Origin: a virus
Lineage: Duplodnaviria > Caudoviricetes
Virus record (IMG/VR): IMGVR_UViG_3300048881_000734
Coordinates: 5,116-69,115 of that record
Length of the DNA: 64,000 bases
Reading direction: 5' to 3' (one strand)
The translations under genes and the position numbers were made by a program. Position 1 is the stretch's first letter. The number at the start of each line of letters is the position of its first letter. Of the stretch, positions 41,347 through 61,066 are shown piece by piece. The notes beneath the pieces were generated by a model. The model was given only the letters and a program-made list of their open reading frames with translations. It had not been told where the DNA came from and made no database searches.

Positions 41347-41375
41347 TTCAATCCCCTTGGGCGGTTCAATATCAT

Positions 41376-41382
41376 TAAATAT
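41376..41382 (-). promoter_or_regulatory. Class B promoter element
   Basis: ATATTTA. Confidence 0.45.
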
Positions 41383-41387
41383 TCGCT

Positions 41388-42034: not shown

Positions 42035-42041
42035 TAAGTAT
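42035..42041 (-). promoter_or_regulatory. Class B promoter element
   Basis: ATACTTA. Confidence 0.35.
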
Positions 42042-42048
42042 ATCCAAA

Positions 42049-42312
42049 TTAATTATCGTCACGCGTGTTGGAAAACCCAAACATTAACTGAGCAGGGTCT
42101 ATTTCTGTTAAAAAATGTGTTACCATCTCTTGAATATTTCGAACATCATTAGCAACCAAATCATTGTTCCTAGAAATTGCTACTATCGCGCTCTGTAAAT
42201 TTTGCAGCGTCAATGACAGCGATCGGTAGTCTCTCTCTAACTGAGTGATTCGTTCCAATGCCGCTTTGAGTTCCTCATCTTTTTTTTTATCTTTAGAAGA
42301 TGACCACCACAT
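42049..42312 (-). CDS. Coiled-coil hypothetical protein
   Basis: 87 aa heptad pattern. Confidence 0.6.
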   Translation of the reverse strand: MWWSSSKDKKKDEELKAALERITQLERDYRSLSLTLQNLQSAIVAISRNNDLVANDVRNIQEMVTHFLTEIDPAQLMFGFSNTRDDN

Positions 42313-42313
42313 T

Positions 42314-42601
42314 TTATTTCTCCGCAGAAGAATCTTTTAGAATATCATACTTTTCGATTACATCAAAAACGCTTTCTGCATCGGTACCGACAACCTTGCG
42401 TAATTCTTTGTCACCCTTCTCACTAGATATCTTCTCCACTATTTTAACCAAAGCGGGGTCTCCGTTAACCAACCGAGAAATAAGACCCTCTACAATCTCT
42501 TGCATCGAAAGCTTTTTCCGGAAAGCAAGTACTCGGAATTCGGCGTGGGTCTCTGTAAGAAGATTAAAGTGTACCGACTTCTTGCGCACCCAGTTGCTCA
42601 T
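42314..42601 (-). CDS. Ribbon-helix-helix-like small protein
   Basis: KSVHFNL..HAEFRVLA..SMQEIVEGLI. Confidence 0.55.
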   Translation of the reverse strand: MSNWVRKKSVHFNLLTETHAEFRVLAFRKKLSMQEIVEGLISRLVNGDPALVKIVEKISSEKGDKELRKVVGTDAESVFDVIEKYDILKDSSAEK

Positions 42602-43251
42602 ACACCGGCGCCCGCTGAAGCTCCTACAGCGATAGGCACTTGCTCATCGTACTCTTCACGAGTTGCCTTTTCTTCTTCTTTTCGCGCGATGTCGTGGCGA
42701 GTAGACAATAATTCTTCAACTTCATCTGCCACTTCCTCGCCATACTTGTCCAAGAGGAAGCTACGCGCTTTTGACATAATCATTTCTTCGATGTCAAAGA
42801 ACGCATCAAAATTTAATATAATACGAGCGGTCTCAGCGGCAAATCTATCTACATCAATTGCAATATCGTCCTGCTCTCTTAACAGTAGCCGCTTCAAAGA
42901 ATACCCTTCTTCCTGGACTTGAGCACTTTTTATAGAGTCAGACTCAATATCAACAAAGATGGCTTGAAGTTGATCGTCTAGCGATTTTTCATATCTGATC
43001 TTGTCGGACTCTTCTGCTTTCGGACCTTCATCTTCTTCCTCATCGCCACCCTCTTCTTCGCCGCCCTCTTCTTCGCCACCTTCTTCGTCGCCACCCTCTT
43101 CTTCGTCGCCGCCAAATGGATCGTCACCGCCCTCTTCTTCGCCGCCGCCTTCTTCTTCTTCTTCTTCACCGCCACCGAATGGATCATCCTGCTCTAGCAA
43201 AACACCACTATAAGCTTTTCGGAAAAATTCTTTCAAATCATCTCTCTTCAT
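42598..43251 (-). CDS. Acidic Gly/Glu-repeat protein with tag-like segments
   Basis: GVLLEQDD, RLLLREQDD, (GGEEE)n. Confidence 0.75.
   Translation of the reverse strand: MKRDDLKEFFRKAYSGVLLEQDDPFGGGEEEEEEGGGEEEGGDDPFGGDEEEGGDEEGGEEEGGEEEGGDEEEDEGPKAEESDKIRYEKSLDDQLQAIFVDIESDSIKSAQVQEEGYSLKRLLLREQDDIAIDVDRFAAETARIILNFDAFFDIEEMIMSKARSFLLDKYGEEVADEVEELLSTRHDIARKEEEKATREEYDEQVPIAVGASAGAGV
43028..43190. repeat. Coding tandem repeat (GGE/DEEE)
   Basis: Imperfect CCCTCTTCTTCGCCGCC-type units. Confidence 0.8.
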
Positions 43252-43967
43252 TTTTCACTCCCAAGGCCGGCTGACAGGATTTTTCCAAGCTTATCAGCCC
43301 GGCGAACTCTCAGCTCAATAAGGTTCCAATTTAATTCTTTCATCATGGCAAAGATATATTGCCGGCGATCGTTAAGATAGTCTCTAAAATACGCTCGCTC
43401 TTGGACCGATAACACAATAACAGGATACGAGTTCATGGGAATCCCCACTTCGTTTCCATCAACGAAAATGTTAATATAGCGATCAATGAACCCATTATAG
43501 ATTGTGCAAACCCACCCGTCTCGAGATGCCATCCCACATGCAATGAAGTCCTTCTGCCAATCTTCAAAGGTCCCAAAGTCGCGGGCGAGTCTCATATACA
43601 CCAGACTATCCATCGTAATCTTGGAAGTGGGGTCAGCAATATTATCGAAATAATAAGCAGACAAAAATGATCCATTCATGTTATAAGTTTCTTCCTGCTT
43701 AATTCCCCTGAAGGAAGAATCCTTTGGGTTGGAAGCAGAGCGATCCACCGAATCAAGCTTCGCAGAAACGTCGTTAAGGGCATCGACATACTCATGAAGA
43801 TTTTCTACGTTGGCCGTGATGGCTTTTTTGCTAAGCATGTCGGTATTGAGATCATATTTCTTTGCTTGCACAACATAAGACTCAGACAACTGCTTCTCTT
43901 CTTTCTTAGAGTCTTTATACAGCGTCTCGTTTATGGCTTTCAGTATCTCTTGTTCGTTAATTGGCAT
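43248..43967 (-). CDS. Fe/Mn superoxide dismutase-fold protein lacking metal ligands
   Basis: YVDALN, FGTFEDWQKDF, GWV, PVIVLSVQERAYFRDY, LNWNLI. Confidence 0.75.
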   Translation of the reverse strand: MPINEQEILKAINETLYKDSKKEEKQLSESYVVQAKKYDLNTDMLSKKAITANVENLHEYVDALNDVSAKLDSVDRSASNPKDSSFRGIKQEETYNMNGSFLSAYYFDNIADPTSKITMDSLVYMRLARDFGTFEDWQKDFIACGMASRDGWVCTIYNGFIDRYINIFVDGNEVGIPMNSYPVIVLSVQERAYFRDYLNDRRQYIFAMMKELNWNLIELRVRRADKLGKILSAGLGSEK

Positions 43968-44456
43968 TTAATCCACCTCATATTCTTTTTCAAATTCTTC
44001 TTGATCGACCACAAAAACGATTTCATCTTTCGGTTCTTCTGGCAAGTCACCAATGGCCTGGACTCGGGCGTCGATGTCTACCTCAGCGCTTGGGTCTAGC
44101 AAATCTGGAATCCTTGGATCAGCTTCTTCTTCATTAAGCGCTCCAATATCATCGGGTCCACCTAACACTTCTTCTCCCCCACCGGGTGGGTCAAATCTCG
44201 GCTCCTCGGGCTCACGAAGAACAATCTGAACCTGCCCGGGCTTGTCACCCTTCACATGAGCGATTGTGTATTCATACCCAGACTTCTTGTGTCGAACCTT
44301 CAAGTCTGGTGAAAGCACCAGGTTACCGCGGTCGTCAAATACTTCTGATTCTCCGAGCACCTCGTTAAGACGGTTTTCATATTCGAGTCTAAATATTTCT
44401 AAAAGGAATGCTGAATCTGCCATTATCTTCTCCGGATACCTGCTAATACTTCCCAT
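43968..44456 (-). CDS. Acidic hypothetical protein
   Basis: VRHKKSGYEYTI; probable start at MADSA. Confidence 0.65.
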   Translation of the reverse strand: MGSISRYPEKIMADSAFLLEIFRLEYENRLNEVLGESEVFDDRGNLVLSPDLKVRHKKSGYEYTIAHVKGDKPGQVQIVLREPEEPRFDPPGGGEEVLGGPDDIGALNEEEADPRIPDLLDPSAEVDIDARVQAIGDLPEEPKDEIVFVVDQEEFEKEYEVD

Positions 44457-46447
44457 CGAGCTGATTCGATCAACACTCCTTGCTGACCAAACCTTCTGTC
44501 CAAGTAACGATGTACTGATTTACGCACCATTCCGCGGGTTAACCGAACGTTACTTTCTGCTGTAACTTTCAACATTTGTGCAGCAATCTGTGGAATTAAT
44601 TCAGACAAAGAATCAAAATTCTTCTTTGCAAAACGCTTACTCTTTGTCAGCGTCTCTTCATGCTCTCCGCGCCACATATCAATTGCAGCCTGAACTTCAC
44701 CCTCGATCGCTTTAGCGGCATCTTCGAGAGCTGTATTGACGAGATCTTTAAGACCACCAATTCTGTCTTTAGCTTGGAGAGATTTTTGAGAAGTATCAGA
44801 CAGTCCACCCATCCAGTTGTCTAATGCTGCTGCGACAGCGACAGCTGGTGGTTGTTCCTGGCTGGCGGCTTCCTTGGCGGCGGTCTCAAGCTCAGTCTGT
44901 GCAAGCTCCTGCTCTTCGGCAGCTTCCTCTTCGGAAACGGGAGCGCCTTCTTCACCGTCGGCACCTTCTTCTCCAGCAACCGCGATTTTTTTATCGAGCA
45001 ATTCTTGATCATTCACATCAGTAGCCCACGCGGTTACACCTTTTTCATCTGGTGCAGCTCCAGTCGTCTTACCAATCGTTACAAATGCATTCAGGACATC
45101 TTCAAAGGGGATTCCTTCCTCCTCTTGCTCAAATAGTAAAGATGTCAAACTATTCTCATGAAGCAGAGGTCTTTTTCGTTCCCAGTGAGCCACAAACAAT
45201 TTGCTTGCTTCTTCGTCGCTTAAAAGATTCTTTACAAGTTCCCCGCCCGCATCGCCGAGGTGCTTATCACCAAGATCAGCCAGCGCATCCAGGTTCTTGA
45301 AATTCGAGGCAATTTCTTCATCGGCGGCATCAACGGCCTCGGGCGCGATTTCTGCAACTTGCTCAGGTGTTGAGCCATCCGGACCAGACTGGAACATTTG
45401 TAATATCTTGGCAGCCATTGCCTGTTGTCTGGCTGTCAAAGAATCCAGCTTCCCTTGAAGCGCGGAATCGAATGCAGCTGCATCGGCTGGCTCAAGAGAT
45501 CCCTTAACAGCTGCTGAAACTTCTTTTGCCGTATCTGCATCTTGAGCCAGAGCTTCAGCACCAGCTTGAGCTGCTTTCATATCAGGGGCGGCGGCAGCCA
45601 TCTTTTGTCCCTGCTGAGCAGCGGCTGCTGCAGCTGAGGTCTCAGAAGTTTCTGTCGCAATTTGCTCGGTCGATCCTACCAGCGCAGTTTGCACACCCTG
45701 GAGATTTACAGCAGTAAATTCTTCAAAGGGAGAAGAAAGGATGGCAGCGAGTATTACCTCATCTTCGACAAGGTTACCGGAATCATCTCCACCGAAAAGC
45801 TTTGAAATAAAGCCCATCACCTTGTCAAAAAAGCCTCCGCCTTCGGCTTCAGCTGCTTTAGACCCTGTCTCCCAAGCTTTGTTAAACCAATCGGGAACGA
45901 CGTACGTCTTTTCTACTGCTTTCTCAATATCTTCGACTGTCGGAAACTCGGGAGCATCATCCCCGCCTTCCCCAGCAGCATTTGCCAAATCGCCGATCGT
46001 TTGGGTAGGATCCTCTGGCTTCGCACCGGAAATCTCTCCCTTAACCGCTTCAACACACTGAACGACAGCTGCCATCTCACCACAAACATCTTGAATCTTC
46101 GTCGTTAAATCTGCGGCTGCATCGGCGCGTTTCTTCGGGTCAGACTTCTCATCATATAACGCAGAGAAATCCACCTTCGATGCTGCCTCTATTGCCTGGA
46201 TGACCGCCTGCCACTCTGGCGTGTCAGGAAGCGATGAACCTAAGTCATCCAAGGCGCCTAAAAATGCCTGAACACCTTCATCCATCTCGCCCTTATCTTC
46301 ATCGTTAAGTGCTTCGGTCAATAAGCCTTGAAGGCTACCGCCTCGTATAAAATCTTCTGAAAACAAATCAACCTGAGTCTTGATAAACATAGACACACAT
46401 TGCTTGGATAAATCGTGAACTAACCCACTCATGTTTCGAAACTCCAT
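44423..46447 (-). CDS. Large acidic Ala-rich protein (virion candidate)
   Basis: GLLTE, SLLFE; C-terminal ARWEVLAGI. Confidence 0.75.
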   Translation of the reverse strand: MEFRNMSGLVHDLSKQCVSMFIKTQVDLFSEDFIRGGSLQGLLTEALNDEDKGEMDEGVQAFLGALDDLGSSLPDTPEWQAVIQAIEAASKVDFSALYDEKSDPKKRADAAADLTTKIQDVCGEMAAVVQCVEAVKGEISGAKPEDPTQTIGDLANAAGEGGDDAPEFPTVEDIEKAVEKTYVVPDWFNKAWETGSKAAEAEGGGFFDKVMGFISKLFGGDDSGNLVEDEVILAAILSSPFEEFTAVNLQGVQTALVGSTEQIATETSETSAAAAAAQQGQKMAAAAPDMKAAQAGAEALAQDADTAKEVSAAVKGSLEPADAAAFDSALQGKLDSLTARQQAMAAKILQMFQSGPDGSTPEQVAEIAPEAVDAADEEIASNFKNLDALADLGDKHLGDAGGELVKNLLSDEEASKLFVAHWERKRPLLHENSLTSLLFEQEEEGIPFEDVLNAFVTIGKTTGAAPDEKGVTAWATDVNDQELLDKKIAVAGEEGADGEEGAPVSEEEAAEEQELAQTELETAAKEAASQEQPPAVAVAAALDNWMGGLSDTSQKSLQAKDRIGGLKDLVNTALEDAAKAIEGEVQAAIDMWRGEHEETLTKSKRFAKKNFDSLSELIPQIAAQMLKVTAESNVRLTRGMVRKSVHRYLDRRFGQQGVLIESARWEVLAGIRRR

Positions 46448-46469
46448 CTGCTAATATAACGCTTAGAAC

Positions 46470-46487
46470 TAAATATGGAGTAAATAT
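46470..46487 (-). promoter_or_regulatory. Tandem class B promoter elements
   Basis: ATATTTA twice (46470..46476 and 46481..46487). Confidence 0.5.
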
Positions 46488-46495
46488 GTCTGGTG

Positions 46496-46915
46496 CTACG
46501 TTGTGTAACGTCTAACCGCAACTCCCGCAGACATAAGTAGTTCGACTCCGGACAGATCCCTATATTCTTCATCATAAACAACTTCTTTTATACCGCCGTT
46601 AATCATGGCTTTTGCACACATCTTGCATGGGCTTAGGGTCACATACATGATTTTCTTCCCGCGGATATTATAGTCGCACTTTAACAAAGCGTTAATCTCA
46701 GCGTGGATCATTCCTGAATTTCCTGGCTCTATAGACTCTACTTCGTTTGGGCCACCCGAATAATTTCCGTTGTAGCCTACAGCCAGCACCTGTGTGTTTT
46801 CTTTCGTAACAATGACCGCACCTACCTGGTACCGCGGATCATACGACCGACGAGCAATGGAATGGGCAAAGCCCATCCATATTTCATCCCACGGGGGTCT
46901 ACCAACCGAGCTCAC
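46496..46915 (-). CDS. dCMP deaminase
   Basis: RPPWDE, VGAVIV, GYNG, HAEINAL, LSPCKMC. Confidence 0.92.
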   Translation of the reverse strand: MSSVGRPPWDEIWMGFAHSIARRSYDPRYQVGAVIVTKENTQVLAVGYNGNYSGGPNEVESIEPGNSGMIHAEINALLKCDYNIRGKKIMYVTLSPCKMCAKAMINGGIKEVVYDEEYRDLSGVELLMSAGVAVRRYTT

Positions 46916-47549
46916 TTAGATACCTCTTTAGACTATCACAACTCTCAACTTCATCACCCCACACAGACCAGCCCGCAAGCTGCTGACGACCAAAAAGCTC
47001 AACCTTCGACTGGTCGGGAAACATTTGCTCAATCCGAGCTCTAACTTCATCAGGTTTCTTGCTGTGCTGCTCTCGCATATGCTCAAGATATTGTCTGACA
47101 TTTCGGGCACCCCTGGGACGTGGAATCTTTCCGTTCTTTCCTACCAAGCAAAGCTCACACTGAGACATGGTATAAAATCCTGGATTGACTCTCATCTTGT
47201 TCCAGACAAAAGCCACCGTAGAGTATTTTAAGCCCCAGCTTTTTAGAAGCTCAATGCCCTGGTCCAGGTGTGGGTTTGTACACCACATGAAAACAAGAGA
47301 ATCTTCATTCAGAAGCTTCTGCATTGGAAACTGCTTGAGCTGTTTTAGCTTGAGTGTACCATAATGCTTGCGAGCGCCACCTGTATCCCCCATTCCAGGC
47401 TTAGAATGTTGTAGCTGACCTTTGTAATCCCATGGTGGATCCAAATAGACAATGTCAAACCTCGGGTTCTGCGTCGTCAAAAAGTTCTTCAATGTGTTTC
47501 TCCTTAGGCAAAGTAAACCCTGCTGCTTTCTTGTGGCCACCGCCACCAA
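46899..47549 (-). CDS. MT-A70 family N6-adenine methyltransferase
   Basis: DIVYLDPPW, LVFMW, HSKKP, VELFGR; start uncertain. Confidence 0.9.
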   Translation of the reverse strand: MVAVATRKQQGLLCLRRNTLKNFLTTQNPRFDIVYLDPPWDYKGQLQHSKPGMGDTGGARKHYGTLKLKQLKQFPMQKLLNEDSLVFMWCTNPHLDQGIELLKSWGLKYSTVAFVWNKMRVNPGFYTMSQCELCLVGKNGKIPRPRGARNVRQYLEHMREQHSKKPDEVRARIEQMFPDQSKVELFGRQQLAGWSVWGDEVESCDSLKRYLSELGW

Positions 47550-48309
47550 ATCCCTTTGCTATTTCAGAGACATCAACCATCTCATGAAATGCTCGTAAAC
47601 TTACTTTAGTGTTTTGACTCTCATGATCCCAATACCAAATCAAAGCGAAATCGCAATCCGGTGCAAGGCGGGCTCCAATCTCAGACATCCAATGTGATGA
47701 ATTTACAACGAGTACCTCTTTGCCACCCATTTTTCTTTTTTGAGCTTGCTCACAAACTTTCTTAACTACTGTCTTGGAATAGGCCAAAATATACGAGCCC
47801 CGCTTACAAGCGTCATCAAAAACAGAGTCATCTTCAAACTTTTCAAATTCTTCGAACTCAAAAGGAACCATGTCGAAAGCAGCGCTGAACTCTTTGGAAT
47901 ACTCTAGCTTCCACTCCCAGAGGTCGCGGTCTTGAATATACTTGATAAATTTCGGTGGCTCCTTACCTGGATGGAAATATTCCCAAGCAAGTATTGCACC
48001 ACTCTTTGTCATATCGAAATGAGTGTTTGAAATATCGTGTAGCTCTACCATCGCCGACTTGTGATGATCAATAATAAGCAGGTTCTTTGCTTTTTTTATC
48101 ATTTTTTTTGTAGTTGTTTTGCCATAAGAGAAATCAAGTATCACCACATTTTTTCCCTTTACGTCGGGTGGTGGTGTTCCATGTTTACAGGCAAAATACT
48201 CTGCCCTATTTCCAAGCTGTTTCCAGGCTGCATAAGCAGCCCCGAATCCATCAGTGCAATCTGCATGATAAATGACTACGTTAACTGAATTGGGGTCCAT
48301 TGAACTCAT
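47455..48309 (-). CDS. DHH/DHHA1 phosphoesterase
   Basis: YHADCTDG, LDFS, IDHH, GGGGHKKAAGF. Confidence 0.9.
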   Translation of the reverse strand: MSSMDPNSVNVVIYHADCTDGFGAAYAAWKQLGNRAEYFACKHGTPPPDVKGKNVVILDFSYGKTTTKKMIKKAKNLLIIDHHKSAMVELHDISNTHFDMTKSGAILAWEYFHPGKEPPKFIKYIQDRDLWEWKLEYSKEFSAAFDMVPFEFEEFEKFEDDSVFDDACKRGSYILAYSKTVVKKVCEQAQKRKMGGKEVLVVNSSHWMSEIGARLAPDCDFALIWYWDHESQNTKVSLRAFHEMVDVSEIAKGFGGGGHKKAAGFTLPKEKHIEELFDDAEPEV

Positions 48310-48329
48310 AATAATCCTGGGATAGAATT

Positions 48330-48761
48330 TTAATTATCATTTTCTGGGTGAACGTACGTATACCTCGTGTCATCAATAACTTCTCTACCATAATCATCCT
48401 CCAAGCGGACAGCTTCGCTACCGTATCCCGAGGATATTTCGAACACAACACTGTCATCGATGGCGGTCAGTCTATAAGCGCAGCCTGCCTGTACGTTCAA
48501 CAGACTTCCCTTTTCTAAGCGCACAATTCTGGCAGGTTCCGCGGTGGGATCCTGAAAATGTTTTTCATCAGCAATCTCAGCTTTAATCACGCCGTGCTGT
48601 ATGTAGAGCACTTCAGATTTGCAAGGATGAAACTTTAAACTAGTGCGGTGGCCGGCCAGGAGGTGGATTTCTTTTCCTTGAAATATTCCACCCCACGTAA
48701 TTTCGAAGCCCCACGGTTTTTCCGTGGACTTCGCTTCACCGGTCCAGATGCATCTATTCAT
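48330..48761 (-). CDS. Cupin, mannose-6-phosphate isomerase-like
   Basis: EKPWG, TSLKFH..KSEVLYI, RLEDDYGR. Confidence 0.8.
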   Translation of the reverse strand: MNRCIWTGEAKSTEKPWGFEITWGGIFQGKEIHLLAGHRTSLKFHPCKSEVLYIQHGVIKAEIADEKHFQDPTAEPARIVRLEKGSLLNVQAGCAYRLTAIDDSVVFEISSGYGSEAVRLEDDYGREVIDDTRYTYVHPENDN

Positions 48762-49774
48762 TACTCAATTAGCTCCCACCATTTCAATGTCCTTCCTAGT
48801 CCGTCCCAAAATTGTACTTGAGGGCTCCACCCAATTTCTCTACCAATTTTATTTATACACGCGAGTGTGTGCTTAACATCGCCGGCGCGTTCGGGTGCAT
48901 TGGTAACTGCTAAATCAGAAAAATGCTCCTTCAATGTGGCCAAAATTTGGTTATTAGAAACCGACTCACCAGTGGCCACGTTATAGACTTCAAATCCAAT
49001 TGGAGTATCATGATCTGCCACGACCAGCATTGCGGTGGCGATATCTTTCACATATACCATATCACGGGTTTGTTCGCCGTCGCCATCGCTACGGAGGGGT
49101 TCATTCTTAGAAAGACGAGTACACCACGCTGCAATTGCTGTAGAGTATGGTGAGTCCCCCAGCTGACCAGGACCATAGACATTAAAAAAGCGCAATGCTA
49201 CGAAGTCCATCTCATACAGCTTATTATACATTTCACCAAATTGCTCCACAACAAGCTTTTGTAGCCCGTAGGGAGATGTCGGATCCTCAGCTTGACCCTC
49301 ATTTGTTGGCAACTGGGATACCTCACCATAGCATGCTGAGGAAGATGCAAATACAAACCGGTCAATGTTGTGAATTGCTGCTGACATTAATTCAATTGTC
49401 TTCTGAACGTTCGTATGCGTGGTCAGTGCTGGATACTTTACTGAAAATTCCACTCGCGGATTAGCAGCTAAGTGGAAAATAACATCATATCGAGATTTCG
49501 CCACACGAGACAACACTGGCCCAGCGGCAAAATCAGAAGTTATCACCAATAACTTTCCGGGAGTGGCAGCGATTGCAGGCGCTTGTTCTTTATCATATAG
49601 ATGAAGAAGATGCTCAGTGACAGTCCTAAATTCCAGCCCCTCAAGAGCTGTTAAGTCTCCGTTAGAAAGGTCATCAACCCCTTCAACATCCCAACCGGCA
49701 GCTATAAGCTGCCTGGTTACGTGACTTCCAATAAACCCACAGCAACCTGTGACCAATGCTTTACGTGTGTGCAC
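48761..49774 (-). CDS. NAD-dependent nucleotide-sugar epimerase (GalE/WbpP-like)
   Basis: LVTGCCGFIGS, FHLAA, ASSSACYG, YGLQK, RFFNVYGP. Confidence 0.93.
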   Translation of the reverse strand: MHTRKALVTGCCGFIGSHVTRQLIAAGWDVEGVDDLSNGDLTALEGLEFRTVTEHLLHLYDKEQAPAIAATPGKLLVITSDFAAGPVLSRVAKSRYDVIFHLAANPRVEFSVKYPALTTHTNVQKTIELMSAAIHNIDRFVFASSSACYGEVSQLPTNEGQAEDPTSPYGLQKLVVEQFGEMYNKLYEMDFVALRFFNVYGPGQLGDSPYSTAIAAWCTRLSKNEPLRSDGDGEQTRDMVYVKDIATAMLVVADHDTPIGFEVYNVATGESVSNNQILATLKEHFSDLAVTNAPERAGDVKHTLACINKIGREIGWSPQVQFWDGLGRTLKWWELIE

Positions 49775-50318
49775 AAAAATCCTCCGCCTTCCAATTTTTA
49801 TTAATTCCTAAGAACATTTTAATCTTTTTCACCTGTTTGTTCAAGTCCATGTCATCTGTTTCCAAAATCAGAAAATCACATCCCGTATATTCTGCAAACT
49901 CACGATAATTAGCGTCCAATATTCTTAACATCTCAGGTGGCAATTGATCAGGATATTGGTCATCGATTAAGCCAGAATAATCCTGTCGTAAGCAAATGAT
50001 AAACTTTCCACCAACTTCACGAAAATTCTTATCCATCCAATCAATCGCCGACATATCGGTACCCCGACCGAATGCAGTTGCGTACACAAGCTCACATGGG
50101 TAAAAGCGATCCAAGATAACCGATATATTCGTTTGACGAATAAAGTCCATCAAAAATGGGCCGCCATATCGGAGCAAATTAAGAAAATAATCCGAACTAT
50201 CAAGCTGTGTCTTCCATTCACCAGAGTTTTTGAACACAGGAAGTCCCGTCTGACGAGAGAGCTCTTCAGCAATGTTCGACTTTCCAGTCATGTCTGGTCC
50301 GATAAACGCAAGCTTCAT
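49761..50318 (-). CDS. Thymidylate-kinase-like dNMP kinase
   Basis: GPDMTGKS, LDRFYPCELVY. Confidence 0.85.
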   Translation of the reverse strand: MKLAFIGPDMTGKSNIAEELSRQTGLPVFKNSGEWKTQLDSSDYFLNLLRYGGPFLMDFIRQTNISVILDRFYPCELVYATAFGRGTDMSAIDWMDKNFREVGGKFIICLRQDYSGLIDDQYPDQLPPEMLRILDANYREFAEYTGCDFLILETDDMDLNKQVKKIKMFLGINKNWKAEDFCAHT

Positions 50319-51370
50319 GCCTGGTAGTCCCCCAGAAAGTGCTCGAGAAGATCTACCCTATACTCAGGCCTTGGATCGATTACAGTCCTCAGAGCCTCCT
50401 CCTGTGCATCAACCAAAGCTTTCCGCTCAGCGGCATTTAAAGTTGCGATCCACCTCACCTTTTCAATAACATCTGTAATAGAATCGACAAGAAGCGATCC
50501 ATCAGTCAGACCAACGGGAACAGCATGTTCAAACTCAGTTGGAATCAAGGCTGGAACATTACTCTTTATCGCTTCGAAAAAACGACCTGTGATGTTCCCA
50601 AAGGGTGTGTACGCATCTTTGGTGATGTGTGTAACAGTAAGAGAAGAATTTAATACGCCAAAAATATCTTTATACGCCAAGCGGGGTCCGAAAGCAACAT
50701 GCGGAGTTTGAGCGATCAAGACGCCTGGGTCTGTTCGTTCCGGAGATTTATTGAGCCAATTTCCATAAATTGAAGTTTGAATACCGTGCATTCGCAAATA
50801 TTTGCTTGGCTCAACATAGTACTTGTTGAACTGGTACTCTCGCTCGTAATTGTTCCCAACGTATGTATAGTTGTAAGAATACTCAACTGGGTCATAATAC
50901 CGCTTCATATAATTGCACCATGGGATAGTAATACGCTTTCGAGTCTGGTGTTGCGGGGCGACGCATGCATCTGCAAGAATTGCATTCGGCCACCTTTCTT
51001 CTTCTTCGGGAGTCATCTTTAGATCTCCGTCCACAATCACAATCGGAATGCCTTGCTCATGATAATAATCTAGAACTTCGCACTGGCGTTTGTAGTCCGG
51101 CTCTACTGGATTCTCTCCCGAGTTTTTCCATGTTGGCCAGCGCCACTCGACATAAAGAATATCCCCATCGGGATAGCCTGTATTGTCATATTGCACACCC
51201 GGATATTGCTCATCATCGCGGAGCATTTGTAGCTGTATTGGCGTGTGGCCACGCTTTAGCAATTCATTAACAAAATCAACTCGATTTCCACGTTCACCGT
51301 CTGGGGTCTCAACAATGCTGTTCTTCTCGAGCGGGGTAATAAAGCCCCAAAAACTATACAATACCTTCAT
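50315..51370 (-). CDS. GT-B glycosyltransferase resembling T4 DNA beta-glucosyltransferase
   Basis: 351 aa; YGNW, ITGRFFEAIKSNVPALIPTEFE, RKALVDAQEEAL align by eye with the T4 BGT C-terminal domain as recalled (FGNA, ITLRVWETMASDAVMLIDEEFD, RKEMLSIQHDIL). Confidence 0.7.
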   Translation of the reverse strand: MKVLYSFWGFITPLEKNSIVETPDGERGNRVDFVNELLKRGHTPIQLQMLRDDEQYPGVQYDNTGYPDGDILYVEWRWPTWKNSGENPVEPDYKRQCEVLDYYHEQGIPIVIVDGDLKMTPEEEERWPNAILADACVAPQHQTRKRITIPWCNYMKRYYDPVEYSYNYTYVGNNYEREYQFNKYYVEPSKYLRMHGIQTSIYGNWLNKSPERTDPGVLIAQTPHVAFGPRLAYKDIFGVLNSSLTVTHITKDAYTPFGNITGRFFEAIKSNVPALIPTEFEHAVPVGLTDGSLLVDSITDVIEKVRWIATLNAAERKALVDAQEEALRTVIDPRPEYRVDLLEHFLGDYQA

Positions 51371-51385
51371 TTTTTCTCCATAATA

Positions 51386-52516
51386 TTATTCATTATAACC
51401 GATCCAGCCACGGTTTTCAAGTTCACGCTTGGCTTTTACCAAAGCGGAGCCGATCACCTGGTGCATATCGTAATACTTGTACTCTGACAATCTTCCCCCG
51501 AAGATAACACCTTCTTCCGCATATGCCATTGCAGCATATTTCTTGTACATGGTACTGTTCTTCTCATCATTGATTGGATAGTAGGGTGTTTTACCACGGA
51601 CATATTCATCTGAATACTCTCGAGTAACAATCGTATTCTTCAGCTTCTTAGCTTCATTAGGCAAAAAATGCTTGTGCTCAACAATCCGAGTGAAGGGAAT
51701 ATCTGGATGGGTATAATTTACCACAGCGTTCCCCTGAAAGTCTCCGTCGAGCTCTTCATGCTCAAAGCGAAGTGTCCGATACTCCAGCTCCCCATGACAG
51801 AAATTAAAGTACTCATCAATCTTACCCGTAAAAACAACTTTTTCTGCCAGCATATCATATACTTCACGATGTTCAAAGTAGTCTGAGTCTGTTTTTACCT
51901 CAATCCCTTCCAGCATATTAGCGACCATCGCAGTGTACCCGTCAACCGGAATTCCCTGGTATTTATCAAAGAAATAATTTTCATCGAAGGTAAGACGAAT
52001 TGGAAGCCGCTTTATAATTGACGCAGGAAGCTCCTTTGGATCGCGCTGCCACTGCTTCATGGTATACCCCTTGATGAAAGTCTCGTACACTTCACGCCCT
52101 ACCTGCGATAGAATCCAATCCTCAAGATTATCAGGATTTTCGCAGGGGATACGCACTTCTTCTAGCTTTTTCTCTGCTTCTGCGGGTGTCTTCACACCCC
52201 AGAGCTGGTGAAGCGTCATTAAGTTAATGGGGAAGGAAAAAATTCGATCCTTGAAACGGATCTTTGGTTTGTTGACATAATTGTTGAACGTTGCAAAGCG
52301 ATTAACGTACTTCCAAATTTTCTCATTGTTCGTGTGGAAAATATGAGCGCCATACACATGCACATCGATTCCGTTCCTCTTTTCTGAATAAACATTTCCG
52401 CCGATGTGTGGACGCTTGTCAAGCACGATACACTTGTAACCGGAATCTGTCATTTCCCTGGCAAACGTTGCACCGAATATTCCAGCGCCTACGATTAGAT
52501 AGTCGAATTCTTTCAC
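51386..52516 (-). CDS. glf: UDP-galactopyranose mutase
   Basis: IVGAGIFG, HIGGN, HVYGAHIFHT, YTMKQW, YQGIP, TRIVEHKHF, PYYP, GRLSEYKYYDM. Confidence 0.96.
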   Translation of the reverse strand: MKEFDYLIVGAGIFGATFAREMTDSGYKCIVLDKRPHIGGNVYSEKRNGIDVHVYGAHIFHTNNEKIWKYVNRFATFNNYVNKPKIRFKDRIFSFPINLMTLHQLWGVKTPAEAEKKLEEVRIPCENPDNLEDWILSQVGREVYETFIKGYTMKQWQRDPKELPASIIKRLPIRLTFDENYFFDKYQGIPVDGYTAMVANMLEGIEVKTDSDYFEHREVYDMLAEKVVFTGKIDEYFNFCHGELEYRTLRFEHEELDGDFQGNAVVNYTHPDIPFTRIVEHKHFLPNEAKKLKNTIVTREYSDEYVRGKTPYYPINDEKNSTMYKKYAAMAYAEEGVIFGGRLSEYKYYDMHQVIGSALVKAKRELENRGWIGYNE

Positions 52517-53544
52517 TTCTTTCTCCTTGTGTTGAATGCATAACCACTGAATCTTAAATCTCTAAGAAGGTTTGCTGCTTCTTCTTTTTGGTCTAGCTTC
52601 CTCAGGCGATCTGCCGCTAAAATGACGGCCCAATCAGCCCAAACAAAAGCCGATGCCGAAGGATATGCAAACGATCGTCGTAAGCTTGATTCAACTGCGT
52701 CTAAACTGGTGGCAGTAGAAATATCATCCTCAAACTCCATTAGTCGATCGATCCAAAACGAAAGCTCGTCGCGAGAGGTACACTCAACTGCTGGCATTGC
52801 GCGGTGGCGCTTATATAATTCAAACTGAGACTTATTGACATTGGCAGTTTTCAGAATCGTTTCTGCCATATGAAAATGTCGCTCATATATGTGCAGAGAA
52901 TTACTCATATGAGTATAGGCACCAAGCTCCACACCAAGCTCATTCGCAAGAAGCTCCTGGAATAGAGTGAATGCTGGAATGTCATAAGCAATCCCAAAGA
53001 TCACATCTGAACTCCTCATATTGACAATCTGATGGAGCTTTCCGTCTCTAATAAAAAATTGAAGAGCCAGTGTGCATGGGACGTCTAGCTTGGCATCAAC
53101 GCTATCGTCAGGTACTCGCAAATGCATGACCGCTCTACGAGAGTCTGGGTCTCGCTTCAATTCGTTAACAACGTATTCCCACTGATTAAGCCTTCCACCC
53201 GCAATCTTGGGGTGCTCTTTGAAAAGACGAGCGCCATACGCAGAATTTGCAGTTACCCCATCATCACTAATATCTTTCCAGAACTTCGAGTATTTCGCGA
53301 TCCACTCTGTCTTGTCATTACCAGAAAGATACCACAGCAATTCAGCAACCATATAGGTCACGCTAAACTTTCGGCCGGCGACATAGGGGATGCGATCCCG
53401 GGGATTTAGAATCGTAAAAGAAGCCGCAAGAATTTCTTTAACCTTTTGTCCTCGGGGCGCCGCTTCAAAATCCGGGGTCTCATAAACATTTCTGACAAGT
53501 GCTAGATAGCAATGCGTGAAAGATTGATAGGTTCCAATGTGCAC
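52513..53544 (-). CDS. Thymidylate-synthase homolog, dCMP-specific (dCMP hydroxymethylase-like)
   Basis: AELLWYLSG, YGAR, DSRRA, catalytic PCT, MRSSDVIFGIAYD with Asp at the ThyA Asn177 position, SLHIYERH. Confidence 0.85.
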   Translation of the reverse strand: MHIGTYQSFTHCYLALVRNVYETPDFEAAPRGQKVKEILAASFTILNPRDRIPYVAGRKFSVTYMVAELLWYLSGNDKTEWIAKYSKFWKDISDDGVTANSAYGARLFKEHPKIAGGRLNQWEYVVNELKRDPDSRRAVMHLRVPDDSVDAKLDVPCTLALQFFIRDGKLHQIVNMRSSDVIFGIAYDIPAFTLFQELLANELGVELGAYTHMSNSLHIYERHFHMAETILKTANVNKSQFELYKRHRAMPAVECTSRDELSFWIDRLMEFEDDISTATSLDAVESSLRRSFAYPSASAFVWADWAVILAADRLRKLDQKEEAANLLRDLRFSGYAFNTRRKK

Positions 53545-53580
53545 TTTTTACTCCACTTAATAGTGATTGTAGACTTTTTT

Positions 53581-53608
53581 ATCATATACGAAGACGCTTA
53601 ACTTTACT
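53581..53608 (-). promoter_or_regulatory. Class A promoter heading the modification operon
   Basis: AGTAAA-N16-TATGAT. Confidence 0.45.
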
Positions 53609-56600
53609 CATAGATGTTTGATATCCGAAATCATTTTTCTTAATTTCGGCAACACACAGACTGTACAGCGGCAGTTCAGTTTCACCATCCCATCCCCAAC
53701 AAAACATTCGAAAATTCTTTCCGTCAAGGCCAGTTGCTGTGACAAGAAGATAGGGCCTCTTGTTCTTTGTAAGCTTTTCCTTCACATCTGAAACAAGGAA
53801 CCAATAGAGGTCATGGCCATTAGCTTCGATACCATCGATACACTGGATCCCTTTCTCCACCAAACGCTCCTGAACTTCACCGCTAATCAATGTCGAGGCG
53901 TTAAAAGAACCGAAGTGCTTGACGCTGTTTTCCACCCGCTCTCGGCGTGACCAGCGACCGGACCCCTGAGTATCAAGAAGAGCTTCTTTGAAGTTATTCT
54001 TTCCACGCTCAGGATCTCGTTTGGTCCATTTCTTAATATCGGTGTTGCGATTTATGAGCACCTCATGCATGTGCTTATAGCTTTCAAACATATTCCCAGG
54101 ACCGACCAAATTCATGGACTCAAATGCCCGGATGTTGATGAGCGCCTCAAGAGCACGTTTGTTAAACTTTGAGTGTCTCCATTTTCCTTCTTCGGTCCAC
54201 AGCAAGTCATCAATATTCTCATAAGGTCGATTCATAACGAGCTCATCAATCGCTGCTTCGCCAATTCCCTTGCAAGACAAGAGGGAGGGCATAAACTTCT
54301 TACCTTCAAGGATGGTCCACTTCTTCGTGGCGTAATTGATGTCAAGCGGAACTACGTCATAGCCAAGTGCCTTAACTTCTGCAAACGCTTTTGCGCGCTT
54401 CTTGTCATTCCCAGACATTGCTTCTAGATATGCACAGAGCCATTCTTCCTCGTAGTATGTGAGTAACCAAGCGCAATAATACGAGTCGATTGCATACGAA
54501 ACAGCATGCGCTTTGTTAAACCCGTAGCCTGAGAAATACAGAATCTTTTCGTACAAGTCATCTGCAAGCTGCTCATCTACTCCGTTACTCACAGCCCCGG
54601 CGACGAATCGAGTCTTGATCCCTCGAGCCTGAGCTAGTGACTCAGCTGCCTCTGACGCTTTTCGCTTCATAATGCTACGGCGAACAGTGTCAGTTTCTTC
54701 TTCAGGGAAACCAGCCACAACAGAACACAACTTCATGATCTGCTCTTGGAAAACAATCATACCATACGTTTCTTCAAGGACCTCTTTGATCAGTGGGTGG
54801 CCATAATCCACGCTTTCAGGATTGTTCTTGGCCTTGATATAGTGCCTGTCTACCTTCGCTGTGAGTGGGCCAGGCCGGTAAATCGATGTCAACGTTGCAA
54901 TATCAACGATGCTTTTCGGCTTCGCCTTTCGAAACAGGTTTCTAGACCCACGGTTCGCTAACTGGAACACACCGGGAAAACGACCCTCAGCATAAACGTG
55001 TGTGTAAACATGTTGATCATTCATATCCAGAACTTTCGGATCCATATGATTGTTAAACCATTCATAGACTTGGTCAAATGTTGGGTCTTCAATCCCTTCC
55101 TTCCGGTGCAAGATTAATTCGATTGTTCTTTGAATAATACGCAATGTCTCTAGCCCAAGCAAGTCAAACTTAATCCAGCCAAAAGTTTCTAAATGCTTGT
55201 AATTCATCCCCTCAGCCCAAGGCGTCTGGAGCTCTCCCCTTGCCTTAATGAGTGGCATCCGCTCTGCAATATCTTCAGCAACAATGCAACCACCTGCGTG
55301 CCGGCCCAAGGCTTTGTTCTGCTTGAACAGGACCTGAATCGGTTCAGCCACTTCTGGATGCATCGCGATGAATGTACTAAATTTCTTTGAATGAGCTAAC
55401 GCATCTTCATAAAGAAGAACGAATAGGTTCTTATCAGTACCAGGCTTGAAGACTGCGCGCCTGACATCTTCGTCGACAGAGGAAAGAGCTTTGTTGACTT
55501 CGTTAAAGGGGATGCCATAAAAGCGCGAAATATCTTTCACCAACGACTTCAATTTGAAAGTGTTGTAGTTAGAGATCGGAACAATATTGGCATCTCCCCA
55601 CTCCTCCTTCATCATATGAAGCAGAAGATCGCGGTCGCCGACATCTGTGTCAATATCGGGAGCACCTTTTCGTGATGGGTTCAAAAACCTCTCAAACATC
55701 AGATCATATTCAAATGGATCGACGTCCGTTAGACGAAGAACATACGCCACCAAGCTTCCCGCGGCGGAGCCCCGACCTGGTCCGACGAGCATTGCCTTCT
55801 TAGCAATGTTGATGATTGCGGTCATGGTTAAAAAGTATCTAGAAAACTTCTTATCCTTAATGACTTGAAGCTCATATTTCAATCGTTCGATATACTTTTG
55901 ATCACCTGCGAGTCCGCGCTCAATGAGCCCCTCCTTACATGCTTCGAGAAGCGCTCTGTCATCAGTCTGCCCTTCGGGAACAACATAAGATGGAAGCTTC
56001 ATCGTGCGGTCTGGGGAAATCTCTTGGATCTCTTCATGGACAATCTGGTGTGGTCGTTCGATGGCGGCTTTCACCAGCTCATCATCATAAAACTCCATAC
56101 CCTCAGTGCTTTTAAGATATGTGTCCCACAGCTGCTCCGCATTCTTTGGATAGAGCTCGCACTTCAAGTCGTCTTTCGACTTAGGGAGCTTGGACGGATC
56201 AAAATCCCGATAGTTAAGCCACCCAAGCTTTTTGTAGAGCTCACGCTCACGCCAATGTTCTGGACGTGCATAATGTGAATCAGTTGTCACGACAAGCTTG
56301 TCTTCAATACCCTCTTGCTGCGCAAACTCAATGATGGCTCGATTCACAAGATGTTGGGCAGGGAGCTGGTTAAATTGAATCTCAAGATGTACATCCTTCA
56401 TACCCACCGCATCAACTAGCCCCTGATAAGCATTCCCGACGCCAGTCATAACATTGTTACGAAACGATGGATCGTTCATTAACTTATAGCTTAAATCATC
56501 AAACTCGACCTGCTGCGCGTGGCGGAAGACCTCATAAGCAAGAGGGCCGCCAATACAAGCCGTCGAGACCATCAGGTGGCCACCTTCGGCCGCTTCCCTT

Positions 56601-57202
56601 AACATCCTATAGTCGATGCGCGGAAACCTATAGAAACCCTCTCTGTAGCCTCGACTTACAAGGTGGAATAATCTTTGGAGACCCTCACTTGTCTTAGGCA
56701 AAACCACCAGGTGGTGCCGGCGCTTGACGGGATCATAAAACTTCGAAGACTTTGTCTCATCTTCGTTCTCAATTGTCAAGCCGATGTCATCGCTTCCAAT
56801 ATCAATAATCTCATCATCACCATCAACAATAGCTGTAAGAGGTGTGGCGATTGCTTCTCGCCGAGCGCGTAATTCAAACAGCGCCTTCTTATCACCCTTC
56901 TTTGCTGCTTGGCGAATATCATAATCCAAGTGCCAGGCTTCCAGGTCTGGATGGACATACATCTCACACCCTGGAACGAATTTAAACTTTCCCCCTCGCT
57001 TCTGAATCTTCTCTGCGTGGAGAAAAGCATGGCCGAATGAATTCATGTGACCATGATTCGTAAGACACCAGCCATCCATTCCATTCTCTATAACAAAATC
57101 GATATGTTCTTGCGGGTACCCAAGGCCATCAAATGTGCTGAACCCATCATGTGCATGAAGGGAAATAAACTTACTGGGGGGCGTAAGTAATGTCTTTCTC
57201 AT
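53582..57202 (-). CDS. dnaE: DNA polymerase III alpha subunit (family C)
   Basis: PHP domain (HAHDGFS, TNHG, PGCE), GPGRGSAAGSLV, PDIDTD, RHAGG, KFDLLGL, SGYGFNKAHAVSY, C-terminal OB-like region. Confidence 0.97.
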   Translation of the reverse strand: MRKTLLTPPSKFISLHAHDGFSTFDGLGYPQEHIDFVIENGMDGWCLTNHGHMNSFGHAFLHAEKIQKRGGKFKFVPGCEMYVHPDLEAWHLDYDIRQAAKKGDKKALFELRARREAIATPLTAIVDGDDEIIDIGSDDIGLTIENEDETKSSKFYDPVKRRHHLVVLPKTSEGLQRLFHLVSRGYREGFYRFPRIDYRMLREAAEGGHLMVSTACIGGPLAYEVFRHAQQVEFDDLSYKLMNDPSFRNNVMTGVGNAYQGLVDAVGMKDVHLEIQFNQLPAQHLVNRAIIEFAQQEGIEDKLVVTTDSHYARPEHWRERELYKKLGWLNYRDFDPSKLPKSKDDLKCELYPKNAEQLWDTYLKSTEGMEFYDDELVKAAIERPHQIVHEEIQEISPDRTMKLPSYVVPEGQTDDRALLEACKEGLIERGLAGDQKYIERLKYELQVIKDKKFSRYFLTMTAIINIAKKAMLVGPGRGSAAGSLVAYVLRLTDVDPFEYDLMFERFLNPSRKGAPDIDTDVGDRDLLLHMMKEEWGDANIVPISNYNTFKLKSLVKDISRFYGIPFNEVNKALSSVDEDVRRAVFKPGTDKNLFVLLYEDALAHSKKFSTFIAMHPEVAEPIQVLFKQNKALGRHAGGCIVAEDIAERMPLIKARGELQTPWAEGMNYKHLETFGWIKFDLLGLETLRIIQRTIELILHRKEGIEDPTFDQVYEWFNNHMDPKVLDMNDQHVYTHVYAEGRFPGVFQLANRGSRNLFRKAKPKSIVDIATLTSIYRPGPLTAKVDRHYIKAKNNPESVDYGHPLIKEVLEETYGMIVFQEQIMKLCSVVAGFPEEETDTVRRSIMKRKASEAAESLAQARGIKTRFVAGAVSNGVDEQLADDLYEKILYFSGYGFNKAHAVSYAIDSYYCAWLLTYYEEEWLCAYLEAMSGNDKKRAKAFAEVKALGYDVVPLDINYATKKWTILEGKKFMPSLLSCKGIGEAAIDELVMNRPYENIDDLLWTEEGKWRHSKFNKRALEALINIRAFESMNLVGPGNMFESYKHMHEVLINRNTDIKKWTKRDPERGKNNFKEALLDTQGSGRWSRRERVENSVKHFGSFNASTLISGEVQERLVEKGIQCIDGIEANGHDLYWFLVSDVKEKLTKNKRPYLLVTATGLDGKNFRMFCWGWDGETELPLYSLCVAEIKKNDFGYQTSMSKVKRLRI

Positions 57203-58156: not shown

Positions 58157-58546
58157 CTATGCATTCAGTCGATCACATATAATCTCATGTTTCCTTATGT
58201 AAGCATCAAAAAATTCTTTATGGTCAACTCCAGCTAACACAATTATTGCCATAAAATAATTGAACGCATCAATCATTTCTTCAAGAAATTCTTCGCGATT
58301 GAAGTCTGGCATCCCATAGGTCGCTTCCCTGTGGTCTTTCCAATTCTTCAAATGTAAAAGGGCTTCAAAAAGCTCTTCCATTCCACGAAAAGCAAGTTCT
58401 CGAATAGCTTGCTGATTTTGTTTTTTGCTGAGGTCAACCGGCCACTCAGGATACGCATCAGGTACCCTCTCATTTATCATCCGCATGAACTCTTCACGCA
58501 GAGAAAACATTTCCTCTAATTTATTCTGCTGTGGCTTCATCGGCAT
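58157..58546 (-). CDS. Dimeric all-alpha dNTP pyrophosphatase (dUTPase/dCTPase, MazG-like)
   Basis: EELFEAL..KNWK, LEEMIDAFNY. Confidence 0.8.
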   Translation of the reverse strand: MPMKPQQNKLEEMFSLREEFMRMINERVPDAYPEWPVDLSKKQNQQAIRELAFRGMEELFEALLHLKNWKDHREATYGMPDFNREEFLEEMIDAFNYFMAIIVLAGVDHKEFFDAYIRKHEIICDRLNA

Positions 58547-58802: not shown

Positions 58803-58831
58803 ATTATAGTCACATCTTACGATAGTGTACA
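58803..58831 (-). promoter_or_regulatory. Class A promoter
   Basis: TGTACA-N17-TATAAT. Confidence 0.5.
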
Positions 58832-59239
58832 TAGAAAAGTGTGATAATCCACTAAGGCATGATCGACCGGGTCGACATCTTGCCACTCACCCTTTATGAA
58901 TATTCGATGAGCATCATCAGCATATTTTCCGCACCCATAAAGCTCAATTACATTACTCCACCGCTTAGTGACAAACTCTTCGCTAAATGCCTTAAGTGTT
59001 CTAACTCTGCGATTTACTAGCCCAAGCGGCTTCAGGATTGCACGTAGGTCTTCTTCAACTGCTTCAACCACTGCTTCCGGATTAGGAAAAAGTTGAAAGA
59101 ATGTTGCTATCATCGGCTCAACTTGCTTTCTTGCGGTCTGGTTCAGTAGAAGACAAACCACAAGCATCTTCCACTCGTCCGGCCAATAGCGTTCTTGCAA
59201 GAGATCGAATGGAGATTCGGGTGGGATCCATGTTACCAT
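58817..59239 (-). CDS. MBD4-like HhH-GPD DNA glycosylase
   Basis: WKMLVVCLLLNQT, LKPLGL, ELYGCGKYADD, EWQDVDPVDH. Confidence 0.85.
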   Translation of the reverse strand: MVTWIPPESPFDLLQERYWPDEWKMLVVCLLLNQTARKQVEPMIATFFQLFPNPEAVVEAVEEDLRAILKPLGLVNRRVRTLKAFSEEFVTKRWSNVIELYGCGKYADDAHRIFIKGEWQDVDPVDHALVDYHTFLCTLS

Positions 59240-59895: not shown

Positions 59896-60600
59896 TTATC
59901 TGCGATTTTCTTTATATGCGCTGATTGTTTCGGGCCAAATTTCTTCTGCGATCTGTAGACACGCTTTAGCTAGCTGCTGTATCTCCCACTGGGCACCTTC
60001 GTGAATTCGAAGCTCAATAAATTTTAGAAGATTGTTGAGATTAACCGTGCCATAATACTCTGAATAGAGATTCTGGGGAAGCACTCCTCGCGCCTGCTCA
60101 CGACAAACTCCGTTCTTCATCAAGTCATTGTAGAGTCTTAAAGACAGTTGATGGTGCTGAGCTACGCAGTACGAAGCCGTCAGCCCGTAATCTGTATCAC
60201 TCAAGTCTGGAATTATGACTGGGTCAATTTTGTTTTTTAAATTGGAGGCTTGACGATTTGACTTGTGCTGTGTCCGAAATTCTTTTGGCTCGTAAAAGCG
60301 AATATCGACGTCTGTATATCGACGAGATATCTCGTTGTATGACCAAGTTCTATGCCGATGATGCTGGCTACGCACGAACAGAGGCACAATAAAGCGAAAC
60401 GTAATCACATTATGCTCGAAGGTGGATGTATGCTTGTGCTTGATAAGATATCTGATAAGCTTCTTATCTTTTTCGTCAAGCTCTGCCCGTGTTTTTCCAA
60501 ATGAAACTCGAGCGCTATTAACAATCGTTAAGTCGGTTCCCATGTGCTCCACATATTCAACGGCCCCAATGCCGTCGTCATAAAGCTCAATTCTCTTCAT
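59896..60600 (-). CDS. thyX: Flavin-dependent thymidylate synthase
   Basis: VNSARVSF, HTSTFEH, RSQHHRHRTWSYNEISRRY, REQARGVLP, AQWEI. Confidence 0.96.
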   Translation of the reverse strand: MKRIELYDDGIGAVEYVEHMGTDLTIVNSARVSFGKTRAELDEKDKKLIRYLIKHKHTSTFEHNVITFRFIVPLFVRSQHHRHRTWSYNEISRRYTDVDIRFYEPKEFRTQHKSNRQASNLKNKIDPVIIPDLSDTDYGLTASYCVAQHHQLSLRLYNDLMKNGVCREQARGVLPQNLYSEYYGTVNLNNLLKFIELRIHEGAQWEIQQLAKACLQIAEEIWPETISAYKENRR

Positions 60601-61038: not shown

Positions 61039-61066
61039 ACTCTAATTCTTACATGACAAATTTACA
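61039..61066 (-). promoter_or_regulatory. Class A promoter
   Basis: TGTAAA-N16-TAGAGT. Confidence 0.45.

Follow-up and report, generated by a model that had tools for sequence, protein, structure and literature searches.

Sugar-coated cytosines are a main route by which phages get round restriction enzymes and CRISPR, and the β-glucosyltransferase (BGT) of phage T4 is a standard reagent for mapping 5-hydroxymethylcytosine (5hmC). Here we compare with T4 BGT, and with other described phage systems, a glycosyltransferase (GT) of 351 amino acids (aa), P0001, encoded at 50315..51370 on the minus (-) strand of a 64,000-nt stretch of DNA (the window) that spans positions 5,116 to 69,115 of the IMG/VR record IMGVR_UViG_3300048881_000734. 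This record is a 69-kb viral contig with a CheckV completeness of 25%; the window also codes for DnaK and GroEL, the contigs of relatives measure 281-294 kb, and the source is an uncultured marine jumbo phage. P0001, a member of a new phage family related to BGT, is probably a hexosyltransferase that acts on 5hmC in DNA, and it most likely coats the cytosines of the phage DNA with a galactose-type sugar, possibly in its five-membered-ring form. A sequence-only reading of the same DNA had proposed a base-flipping furanosyltransferase akin to T4 BGT.

T4 BGT (CAZy GT63, PF09198; PDB 1QKJ, 1J39 and 1C3J) resembles P0001 in length (351 aa each), in its GT-B fold and in a homologous C-terminal domain (98.4% by hhalign). 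Both enzymes have a dCMP hydroxymethylase as a neighbour in the phage replication region, and both carry an invariant Asp after the fourth strand of the N-terminal domain. They differ in that their identity is only ~15% and the N-terminal acceptor domains are not detectably related in sequence; the window GT is also acidic, lacks a counterpart of BGT R191 and does not match PF09198. T4 draws on UDP-glucose from its host, whereas the companions of the window GT supply a galactose-type sugar through a 4-epimerase, with or without UDP-galactopyranose mutase (Glf).

In Lactobacillus phage ATCCB, the genes for gp45-gp47 (MK504445, 34336-37391) likewise place a hydroxymethylase with the same three active-site aspartates (D/D/D), a BGT-type GT and Glf side by side; GenBank labels them 'thymidylate synthase', 'beta-glucosyltransferase' and 'UDP-galactopyranose mutase'. 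Unlike P0001, the ATCCB GT is a true PF09198/BGT member (hhalign 100% to BGT, and 92.3% to the window family over the C-terminal domain), and ATCCB is a cultured, 80-kb phage with a Gram-positive host. When the complete ATCCB genome was scanned with PF00535, PF00534 and PF13524, no GT came up besides the BGT homolog, and the place of this homolog next to Glf counts in favour of UDP-galactofuranose (UDP-Galf) as a donor.

Rhizobium phage RL38J1 (Pootjesviridae) resembles the window in that the genes for a ThyA homolog, a GT and a kinase come in this order, and in having a phage Glf (PMC13326640). UDP-galactofuranose has been proposed as the precursor of its DNA sugar, and galactose was reported to be base-proximal (PMC13326640). 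Its base differs, being 5-hydroxycytosine (5hoC; E/N/D at the diagnostic positions of the ThyA homolog versus D/D/D), and some 60 kb separate its Glf gene from the GT. We considered whether the RL38J1 proteins gp215 and gp237 (both GTs) or gp214 (the kinase) are orthologs of their window counterparts and rejected this, as no similarity was found. Experiments on RB69, DLP3 and HY126 have demonstrated the transfer of arabinofuranose to 5hoC DNA (PMC13326640; PDB 9IQZ), so DNA furanosyltransferases are already an established type of enzyme. In these phages too a GT-B enzyme moves a furanose from a UDP-furanose to a modified DNA cytosine, but the sugar is a pentose (Araf), the base is 5hoC, and the donor is made from ribulose-5-P without a mutase; compared with our model of P0001, the HY126 GT scored Z 15.8, below the 21-22 of BGT.

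Pyle et al. described BGT-like GT-B 'subclass III' metavirome enzymes that put a hexose or heptose on 5hmC, and noted IMG/VR contigs in which GT-B matches accompany ThyS homologs (10.1101/2023.12.21.572611). Unlike the GT of the window, the enzymes tested there belong to C5-methyltransferase/TET-type clusters, in which 5hmC arises post-replicatively, and neither a furanose nor a mutase is mentioned. A 2016 paper speculated on a Galf transferase that extends glucosyl-5hmC in Enterococcus phages, and our literature search found no description of galactofuranosyl-5hmC. Aeromonas phage 25 (NC_008208, 150841-154112), which is T4-like and cultured, encodes a Glf homolog (36% identity); the two hypothetical proteins of ~350 aa whose genes come next had no detectable kinship with the family and BGT profiles (best 5.4%).

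The transferase family and T4 BGT

Searched alone, P0001 had no match in Pfam, PHROGs, NCBIfam, the PDB sequences (phmmer) or 50,697 phage records (tblastn), and megablast of the whole gene block against the phage records found nothing. The link to BGT is visible by profiles only. A large protein collection contained 158 homologs of P0001; all are unnamed proteins from metagenomes, and their contigs measure up to 294 kb. At E<=0.001 the family extended to 256 clusters (50%-identity representatives), and all members that were traced to their source lay on viral or metagenomic contigs. When a 42-sequence family profile was run against 177,635 distinct PDB sequences, T4 BGT was the sole match (E 1.8e-5), and the match was collinear, with family positions 227-332 corresponding to BGT 234-338.

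Alignment of the family by hhalign with an alignment of BGT homologs gave 96.1%, and with a 233-sequence profile 98.4% (E 6.6e-15), residues 164-346 pairing with BGT 180-349, which is the C-terminal domain. As single-sequence positives, T4 BGT scored 96.3% and the ATCCB BGT homolog 92.3% against the family; the negative controls, two PF00534-type (GT1-type) GTs of a close relative and the RL38J1 DNA GTs, reached 0.4-3.6% and <=0.4%, respectively. The motif pairs that the sequence-only reading had matched by eye to T4 BGT were recovered by both HMMER and hhalign, far beyond chance (family/BGT: IYGNW/FFGNA, ITGRFFEAIKSNVPALIPTEFE/ITLRVWETMASDAVMLIDEEFD and RKALVDAQEEAL/RKEMLSIQHDIL). The family-invariant residues G172, R177, T261, R263 and E266 were aligned to the invariant BGT residues G188, R195, T267, R269 and E272. 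We take G188, R191, R195, T267, R269 and E272 to be the UDP-binding residues of the BGT C-domain, of which five out of six are thus kept. PF09198 clusters were also among the nearest named neighbours of the GT in an ESM Atlas language-model search. Judging from these aligned profiles, the C-terminal donor-binding domain of the GT is homologous to that of T4 BGT. The single PDB match and the gap between 96-98% and the values for GT1-type enzymes bear out the proposal that P0001 is kin of T4 BGT and not a CgeB-type or generic GT.

The CgeB signature, PF13524, was not matched by P0001 but was matched by 27 of its 42 homologs (best 6.6e-11). Because genuine BGT homologs match PF13524 too, this signature does not discriminate between the two kinds of enzyme. 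PF00534 (GT4) matched two of the 42 members (best 0.023), and scans of the window's own contig with PF00534 and with PF00535 found no match. The GT-B fold of the protein sets it apart from galactofuranosyltransferases of the GlfT1/GlfT2 type, which we take to be GT2 enzymes with a GT-A fold (PF00535). Given this fold, and no PF00535 match, Galf transfer by P0001, if real, would take place on a different scaffold.

The AlphaFold2 (AF2) model of P0001 (pLDDT 92.8, pTM 0.90) has the two-Rossmann GT-B fold. T4 BGT was placed at rank 3 in a Foldseek search and again at rank 3 in a wide VIA search; in a second look with VIA, four BGT entries took places 1-3 and 5, with Z 21.4-22.0 over 297-308 aligned residues. 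The N-terminal domain of T4 BGT binds DNA and carries the catalytic D100. In the new family, two invariant residues, D114 and D116, come after the fourth strand of the N-terminal domain (E110-113), topologically as D100 does, and their position makes them candidates for the catalytic base. The N-domain modelled separately (pLDDT 86.5) gave only generic matches to Rossmann and GT-B N-domains.

Several of our observations weigh against so close a tie to BGT. The GT4 enzymes PimA, BshA and sucrose-phosphate synthase, together with T4 AGT, fell within 1 Z of BGT, which amounts to a tie. For the N-domain alone, hhalign against BGT gave a non-significant 1.8%, the fold search put BGT 13th (Z 8.1; PimA Z 9.6), and Foldseek returned nothing below 1e-3. 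The equation of the DGD motif with BGT D100 is not established: D116 pairs with D100 only in a forced global hhalign alignment. In the C-domain, R191 falls in a gap and has no counterpart. None of the 42 family members matched PF09198 at E<=1, and since no member matches the Pfam BGT model we regard the family as new and BGT-related, and not as a BGT. P0001 is also acidic, with a pI of 5.0 against 9.0 for T4 BGT; BGT homologs range from 4.7 to 9.4, so this property is not discriminating.

The predicted base and the conserved gene neighbourhood

We reasoned about the acceptor from the genes that accompany the GT. A ThyA-fold protein of 343 aa, a predicted dCMP 5-hydroxymethylase of the gp42/MilA type, is encoded at 52513..53544 (-). 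Its best PDB match was MilA, a CMP 5-hydroxymethylase (2e-50), ahead of thymidylate synthases (3e-24) and T4 gp42 (4e-19), and its residues C146, D143, D169 and D177 form the T4 gp42 signature. D143, D169 and D177 are present, together with C146, in all 56 linked ThyA homologs; at the three Asp positions the residues are E/N/D in RL38J1 gp216 and L/D/N in a true thymidylate synthase. Published criteria for ThyA homologs take N177D as the mark of cytosine specificity, L143D/E as that of a non-methyl product and D169N as that of a 5hoC synthase (PMC13326640). Some phage ThyA homologs do make 5-hydroxycytosine, as verified experimentally for RL38J1 gp216 (PMC13326640). Because D143, D169 and D177 are as in T4 gp42, the active-site signature predicts 5hmC as the acceptor base. 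Two other bases were considered and rejected: 5hoC, as D169 is retained in 56/56 linked homologs, and 5-hydroxymethyluracil (5hmU), as position 177 is Asp and not Asn. The hydroxymethylcytosine acceptor named in the sequence-only reading is upheld as a prediction, and so is its assignment of the gene to a nucleotide and DNA pathway.

We compared 61 related loci, five from assemblies and 56 from IMG/VR. The ThyA homolog lies <=10 kb from the GT in 56 of these loci, a linkage that reaches GT members at only 26-33% identity; the kinase is beside the GT in 53/61, and the 4-epimerase is kept with it in most. Such surroundings favour DNA as the substrate of the GT, which might reach its base by flipping, as had been suggested. 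The kinase-like protein (49761..50318, -; 185 aa) has a P-loop, a match to the thymidylate kinase family phrog_761 (9.5e-7) and weak matches to deoxynucleoside kinases, and is a candidate 5hm-dCMP kinase. Next to it, at 48761..49774 (-), is an NAD-dependent, GalE-like UDP-hexose 4-epimerase of 337 aa (PF01370, 4.4e-49), whose best NCBIfam model was GalE TIGR01179, below its cut-off, and whose best PDB matches were UDP-hexose 4-epimerases.

All these genes run in the same direction, in the order DnaE, ThyA-fold enzyme, Glf, GT, kinase, 4-epimerase, cupin-like protein, DHH phosphoesterase, MT-A70 methyltransferase and dCMP deaminase. The glf gene (51386..52516, -) overlaps the ThyA-like gene by 4 nt. 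It is separated from the GT by a 15-bp spacer (51371..51385, -), tattatGGAGaaaaa, which precedes the GT ATG and contains a Shine-Dalgarno element, the GGAG ribosome-binding site. The stop of the GT and the start of the kinase-like gene overlap by 4 bp in a common ATGA. The open reading frames on the minus strand therefore agree with the earlier description of a GT gene 15 bp past glf that overlaps the kinase gene. A sigma-70-like promoter match at 51392-51420 (-), scoring 11/12 (TTGAAA, 17 nt, TATAAT), lies within the 3' end of glf just before the GT start; it could be a promoter internal to the operon or have arisen by chance; the region has 25 such sites where 19 are expected.

Two relatives have variants of this arrangement. 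On a 294-kb contig (4076-5263, 6198-11578) the GT is flanked by two short-chain dehydrogenase/reductase (SDR) epimerases and a 395-aa Nuc_deoxyri_tr2 (MilB-fold) protein, with a ThyA homolog nearby, an arrangement that may serve another sugar or a variation on nucleotide salvage. On a 257-kb contig (1-3291) the DnaE gene upstream of the module is in pieces with Intein_splicing domains.

The sugar donor and competing explanations

The gene beside the GT does encode a UDP-galactopyranose mutase, as had been read from the sequence: the 376-aa product matched the Pfam GLF family (PF03275, 3.3e-78) and NAD_binding_8 (1.4e-20), and scored 373.7 bits against the equivalog TIGR00031, whose cut-off is 303.75. 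Glf is present in 22 of the 61 loci. In the GT phylogeny its carriers are a well-supported clade of 12, including the window, and two separate lineages. This pattern takes at least three changes, which we read as at least three gains, and in each Glf lineage its gene is directly upstream of the GT or the kinase. The UDP-hexose 4-epimerase that is kept with the GT across the family leads us to expect a sugar of galactose configuration. In the window's clade UDP-galactofuranose is the leading candidate donor, a position we hold tentatively. It is conceivable, though we would not call it probable, that the GT moves Galf from UDP-Galf, provided by the local, co-transcribed Glf and epimerase, to 5hmC in duplex DNA, yielding galactofuranosyl-5hmC.

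Three observations tell against a Galf donor. In 39/61 loci the epimerase is kept and Glf is missing; however, Glf-negative phages may use the Glf of their host, and the distribution of the gene is therefore not decisive. Among the conserved GT positions, L99V is the only difference between the Glf-positive clade and its Glf-negative relatives, and hence we see no remodelling of the donor pocket with the gain of Glf. Finally, a relative whose GT is 81% identical (on a 280,913-bp contig, 92% complete) has GT2, GT10 and GT1 genes 110-125 kb from the module, and these could use UDP-Galf. For these reasons the furanosyltransferase of the sequence-only reading is unproven.

The distant GT genes of this relative belong to a glycan island (35000-54900 of the 280,913-bp contig) by a tail-fibre chaperone (Peptidase_S74) gene. 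The island holds GT2 genes, a GT10 fucosyltransferase-like gene, two DegT aminotransferases, a GDP-mannose 4,6-dehydratase, an epimerase and two GT1-type GTs, and from this content it may add sugars to virions or to the surface of the host, separately from the DNA module.

The foremost competitor to Galf transfer keeps the 5hmC acceptor and gives the GT a pyranose donor, either UDP-galactose made by the 4-epimerase or UDP-glucose, with Glf feeding another enzyme: a second GT that lengthens the sugar on the DNA, or an enzyme of the phage's separate glycan island. We consider this a serious contender, only a little short of an even chance. It accommodates the conservation of the 4-epimerase across the family next to the 22/61 distribution of Glf, the single L99V difference and the GT2, GT10 and GT1 genes of close relatives, and multi-sugar chains on phage cytosines have precedent (PMC13326640). 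It sits less well with the position of Glf, which in three independent lineages is next to the GT/kinase unit and not near other GTs, or with the distant island, which has its own GDP-sugar pathway and adjoins the tail-fibre chaperone gene. Phage ATCCB, in which three Pfam scans found only the BGT homolog beside Glf, speaks against it as well, and the use of host Glf would account for the loci that lack the gene.

The acceptor could also be a small molecule, namely a free 5-hydroxymethylcytosine nucleotide or nucleoside, modified before replication or in a mildiomycin-like pathway. This would fit the match of the ThyA homolog to MilA of mildiomycin biosynthesis, its best solved relative, the MilB-fold protein in the cluster of one relative and an acceptor domain that is not specifically BGT-like. 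We nevertheless consider it improbable: the module is always found amid genes for replication and for the dNTP pool (DnaE, dCMP deaminase, kinase, MazG, ThyX), no other nucleoside-antibiotic genes were seen, and all characterised phage pairs of ThyA homolog and GT modify DNA post-replication (PMC13326640; 10.1101/2023.12.21.572611). Still less credible, and in our judgement very unlikely, is that a surface-glycan GT of the CgeB/YkvP or GT4 type happens to lie near nucleotide genes, with Glf and the epimerase serving a host or virion glycan. The PF13524 matches of the homologs and the tied fold scores of PimA, BshA and sucrose-phosphate synthase would suit such an enzyme, but genuine BGT homologs share the former, and the family profile matched no PDB chain of GT4 or CgeB type. 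The hhalign values for GT1-type GTs, the dCMP hydroxymethylase linkage that holds down to 26-33% identity, and Pfam and PHROG scans of the block that revealed no flippase, polymerase or lipid-carrier genes all argue in the same direction.

Proposed pathway and surrounding genes

In the cytosine-replacement pathway of the T4 kind that we propose for a 5hmC-DNA hexosyltransferase, the pool of dC nucleotides would be handled by a MazG-like enzyme and a dCMP deaminase, and ThyX would provide dTMP. The ThyA-fold enzyme would convert dCMP to 5hm-dCMP, and the adjacent P-loop kinase would begin its phosphorylation towards 5hm-dCTP, for incorporation by DnaE. The GT would then carry out the last step, transferring a hexose from a UDP-sugar onto the hydroxymethyl group of 5hmC in the DNA, and the glycosylated DNA may protect the genome from host nucleases.

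The genes invoked here lie within or close to the block. A DnaE-type DNA polymerase III alpha (53582..57202, -; phrog_405, 3.5e-223) is directly upstream of the module and syntenic in relatives. A few kb upstream of the block are the genes for a MazG-like NTP pyrophosphohydrolase (58157..58546, -; phrog_12184, 1.3e-13; PRA-PH, 1e-5), which is a candidate dCTPase, and for ThyX, a genuine thymidylate synthase (59896..60600, -; phrog_85, 4.3e-66). The dCMP deaminase (46496..46915, -; PF00383, 7.8e-23) is at the other end. Between it and the epimerase are a 143-aa cupin-like protein (48330..48761, -; phrog_7851, 1.5e-10, and a weak Cupin_1 match), a DHH/DHHA1 phosphoesterase (47455..48309, -), identified by Pfam and PHROG and syntenic in relatives, and an MT-A70 DNA methyltransferase (46899..47549, -; PF05063, 4.9e-26) that occurs only in the subclade of the window.

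Three further genes flank this region. Upstream of the modification block, a short protein resembling HhH-GPD base-excision glycosylases (58817-59239, -; 2.7e-11) and a glutamine-synthetase-like protein (61049-62059, -; Gln-synt_C, 5e-16) are encoded next to ThyX and a 4HBT thioesterase. Downstream, a Sod_Fe_C superoxide-dismutase-like protein (43248-43967, -) is kept in most related loci, at +6 to +9 kb from the module.

With the GT we describe a family of considerable size that lacks annotation, is linked to the synthesis of 5hmC in large uncultured phages and is accompanied by its own supply of a galactose-type sugar. If the sugar is plain galactose or glucose, the family would still be a new branch of DNA glycosyltransferases, and an example of how sugar-supply genes are exchanged around a fixed core of hydroxymethylase, kinase and transferase. 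If it is galactofuranose, these phages would contain a new natural DNA base, made by a GT whose donor is orthogonal to UDP-glucose; this family, widespread among marine jumbo phages, could then provide a second and orthogonal means of tagging 5hmC.

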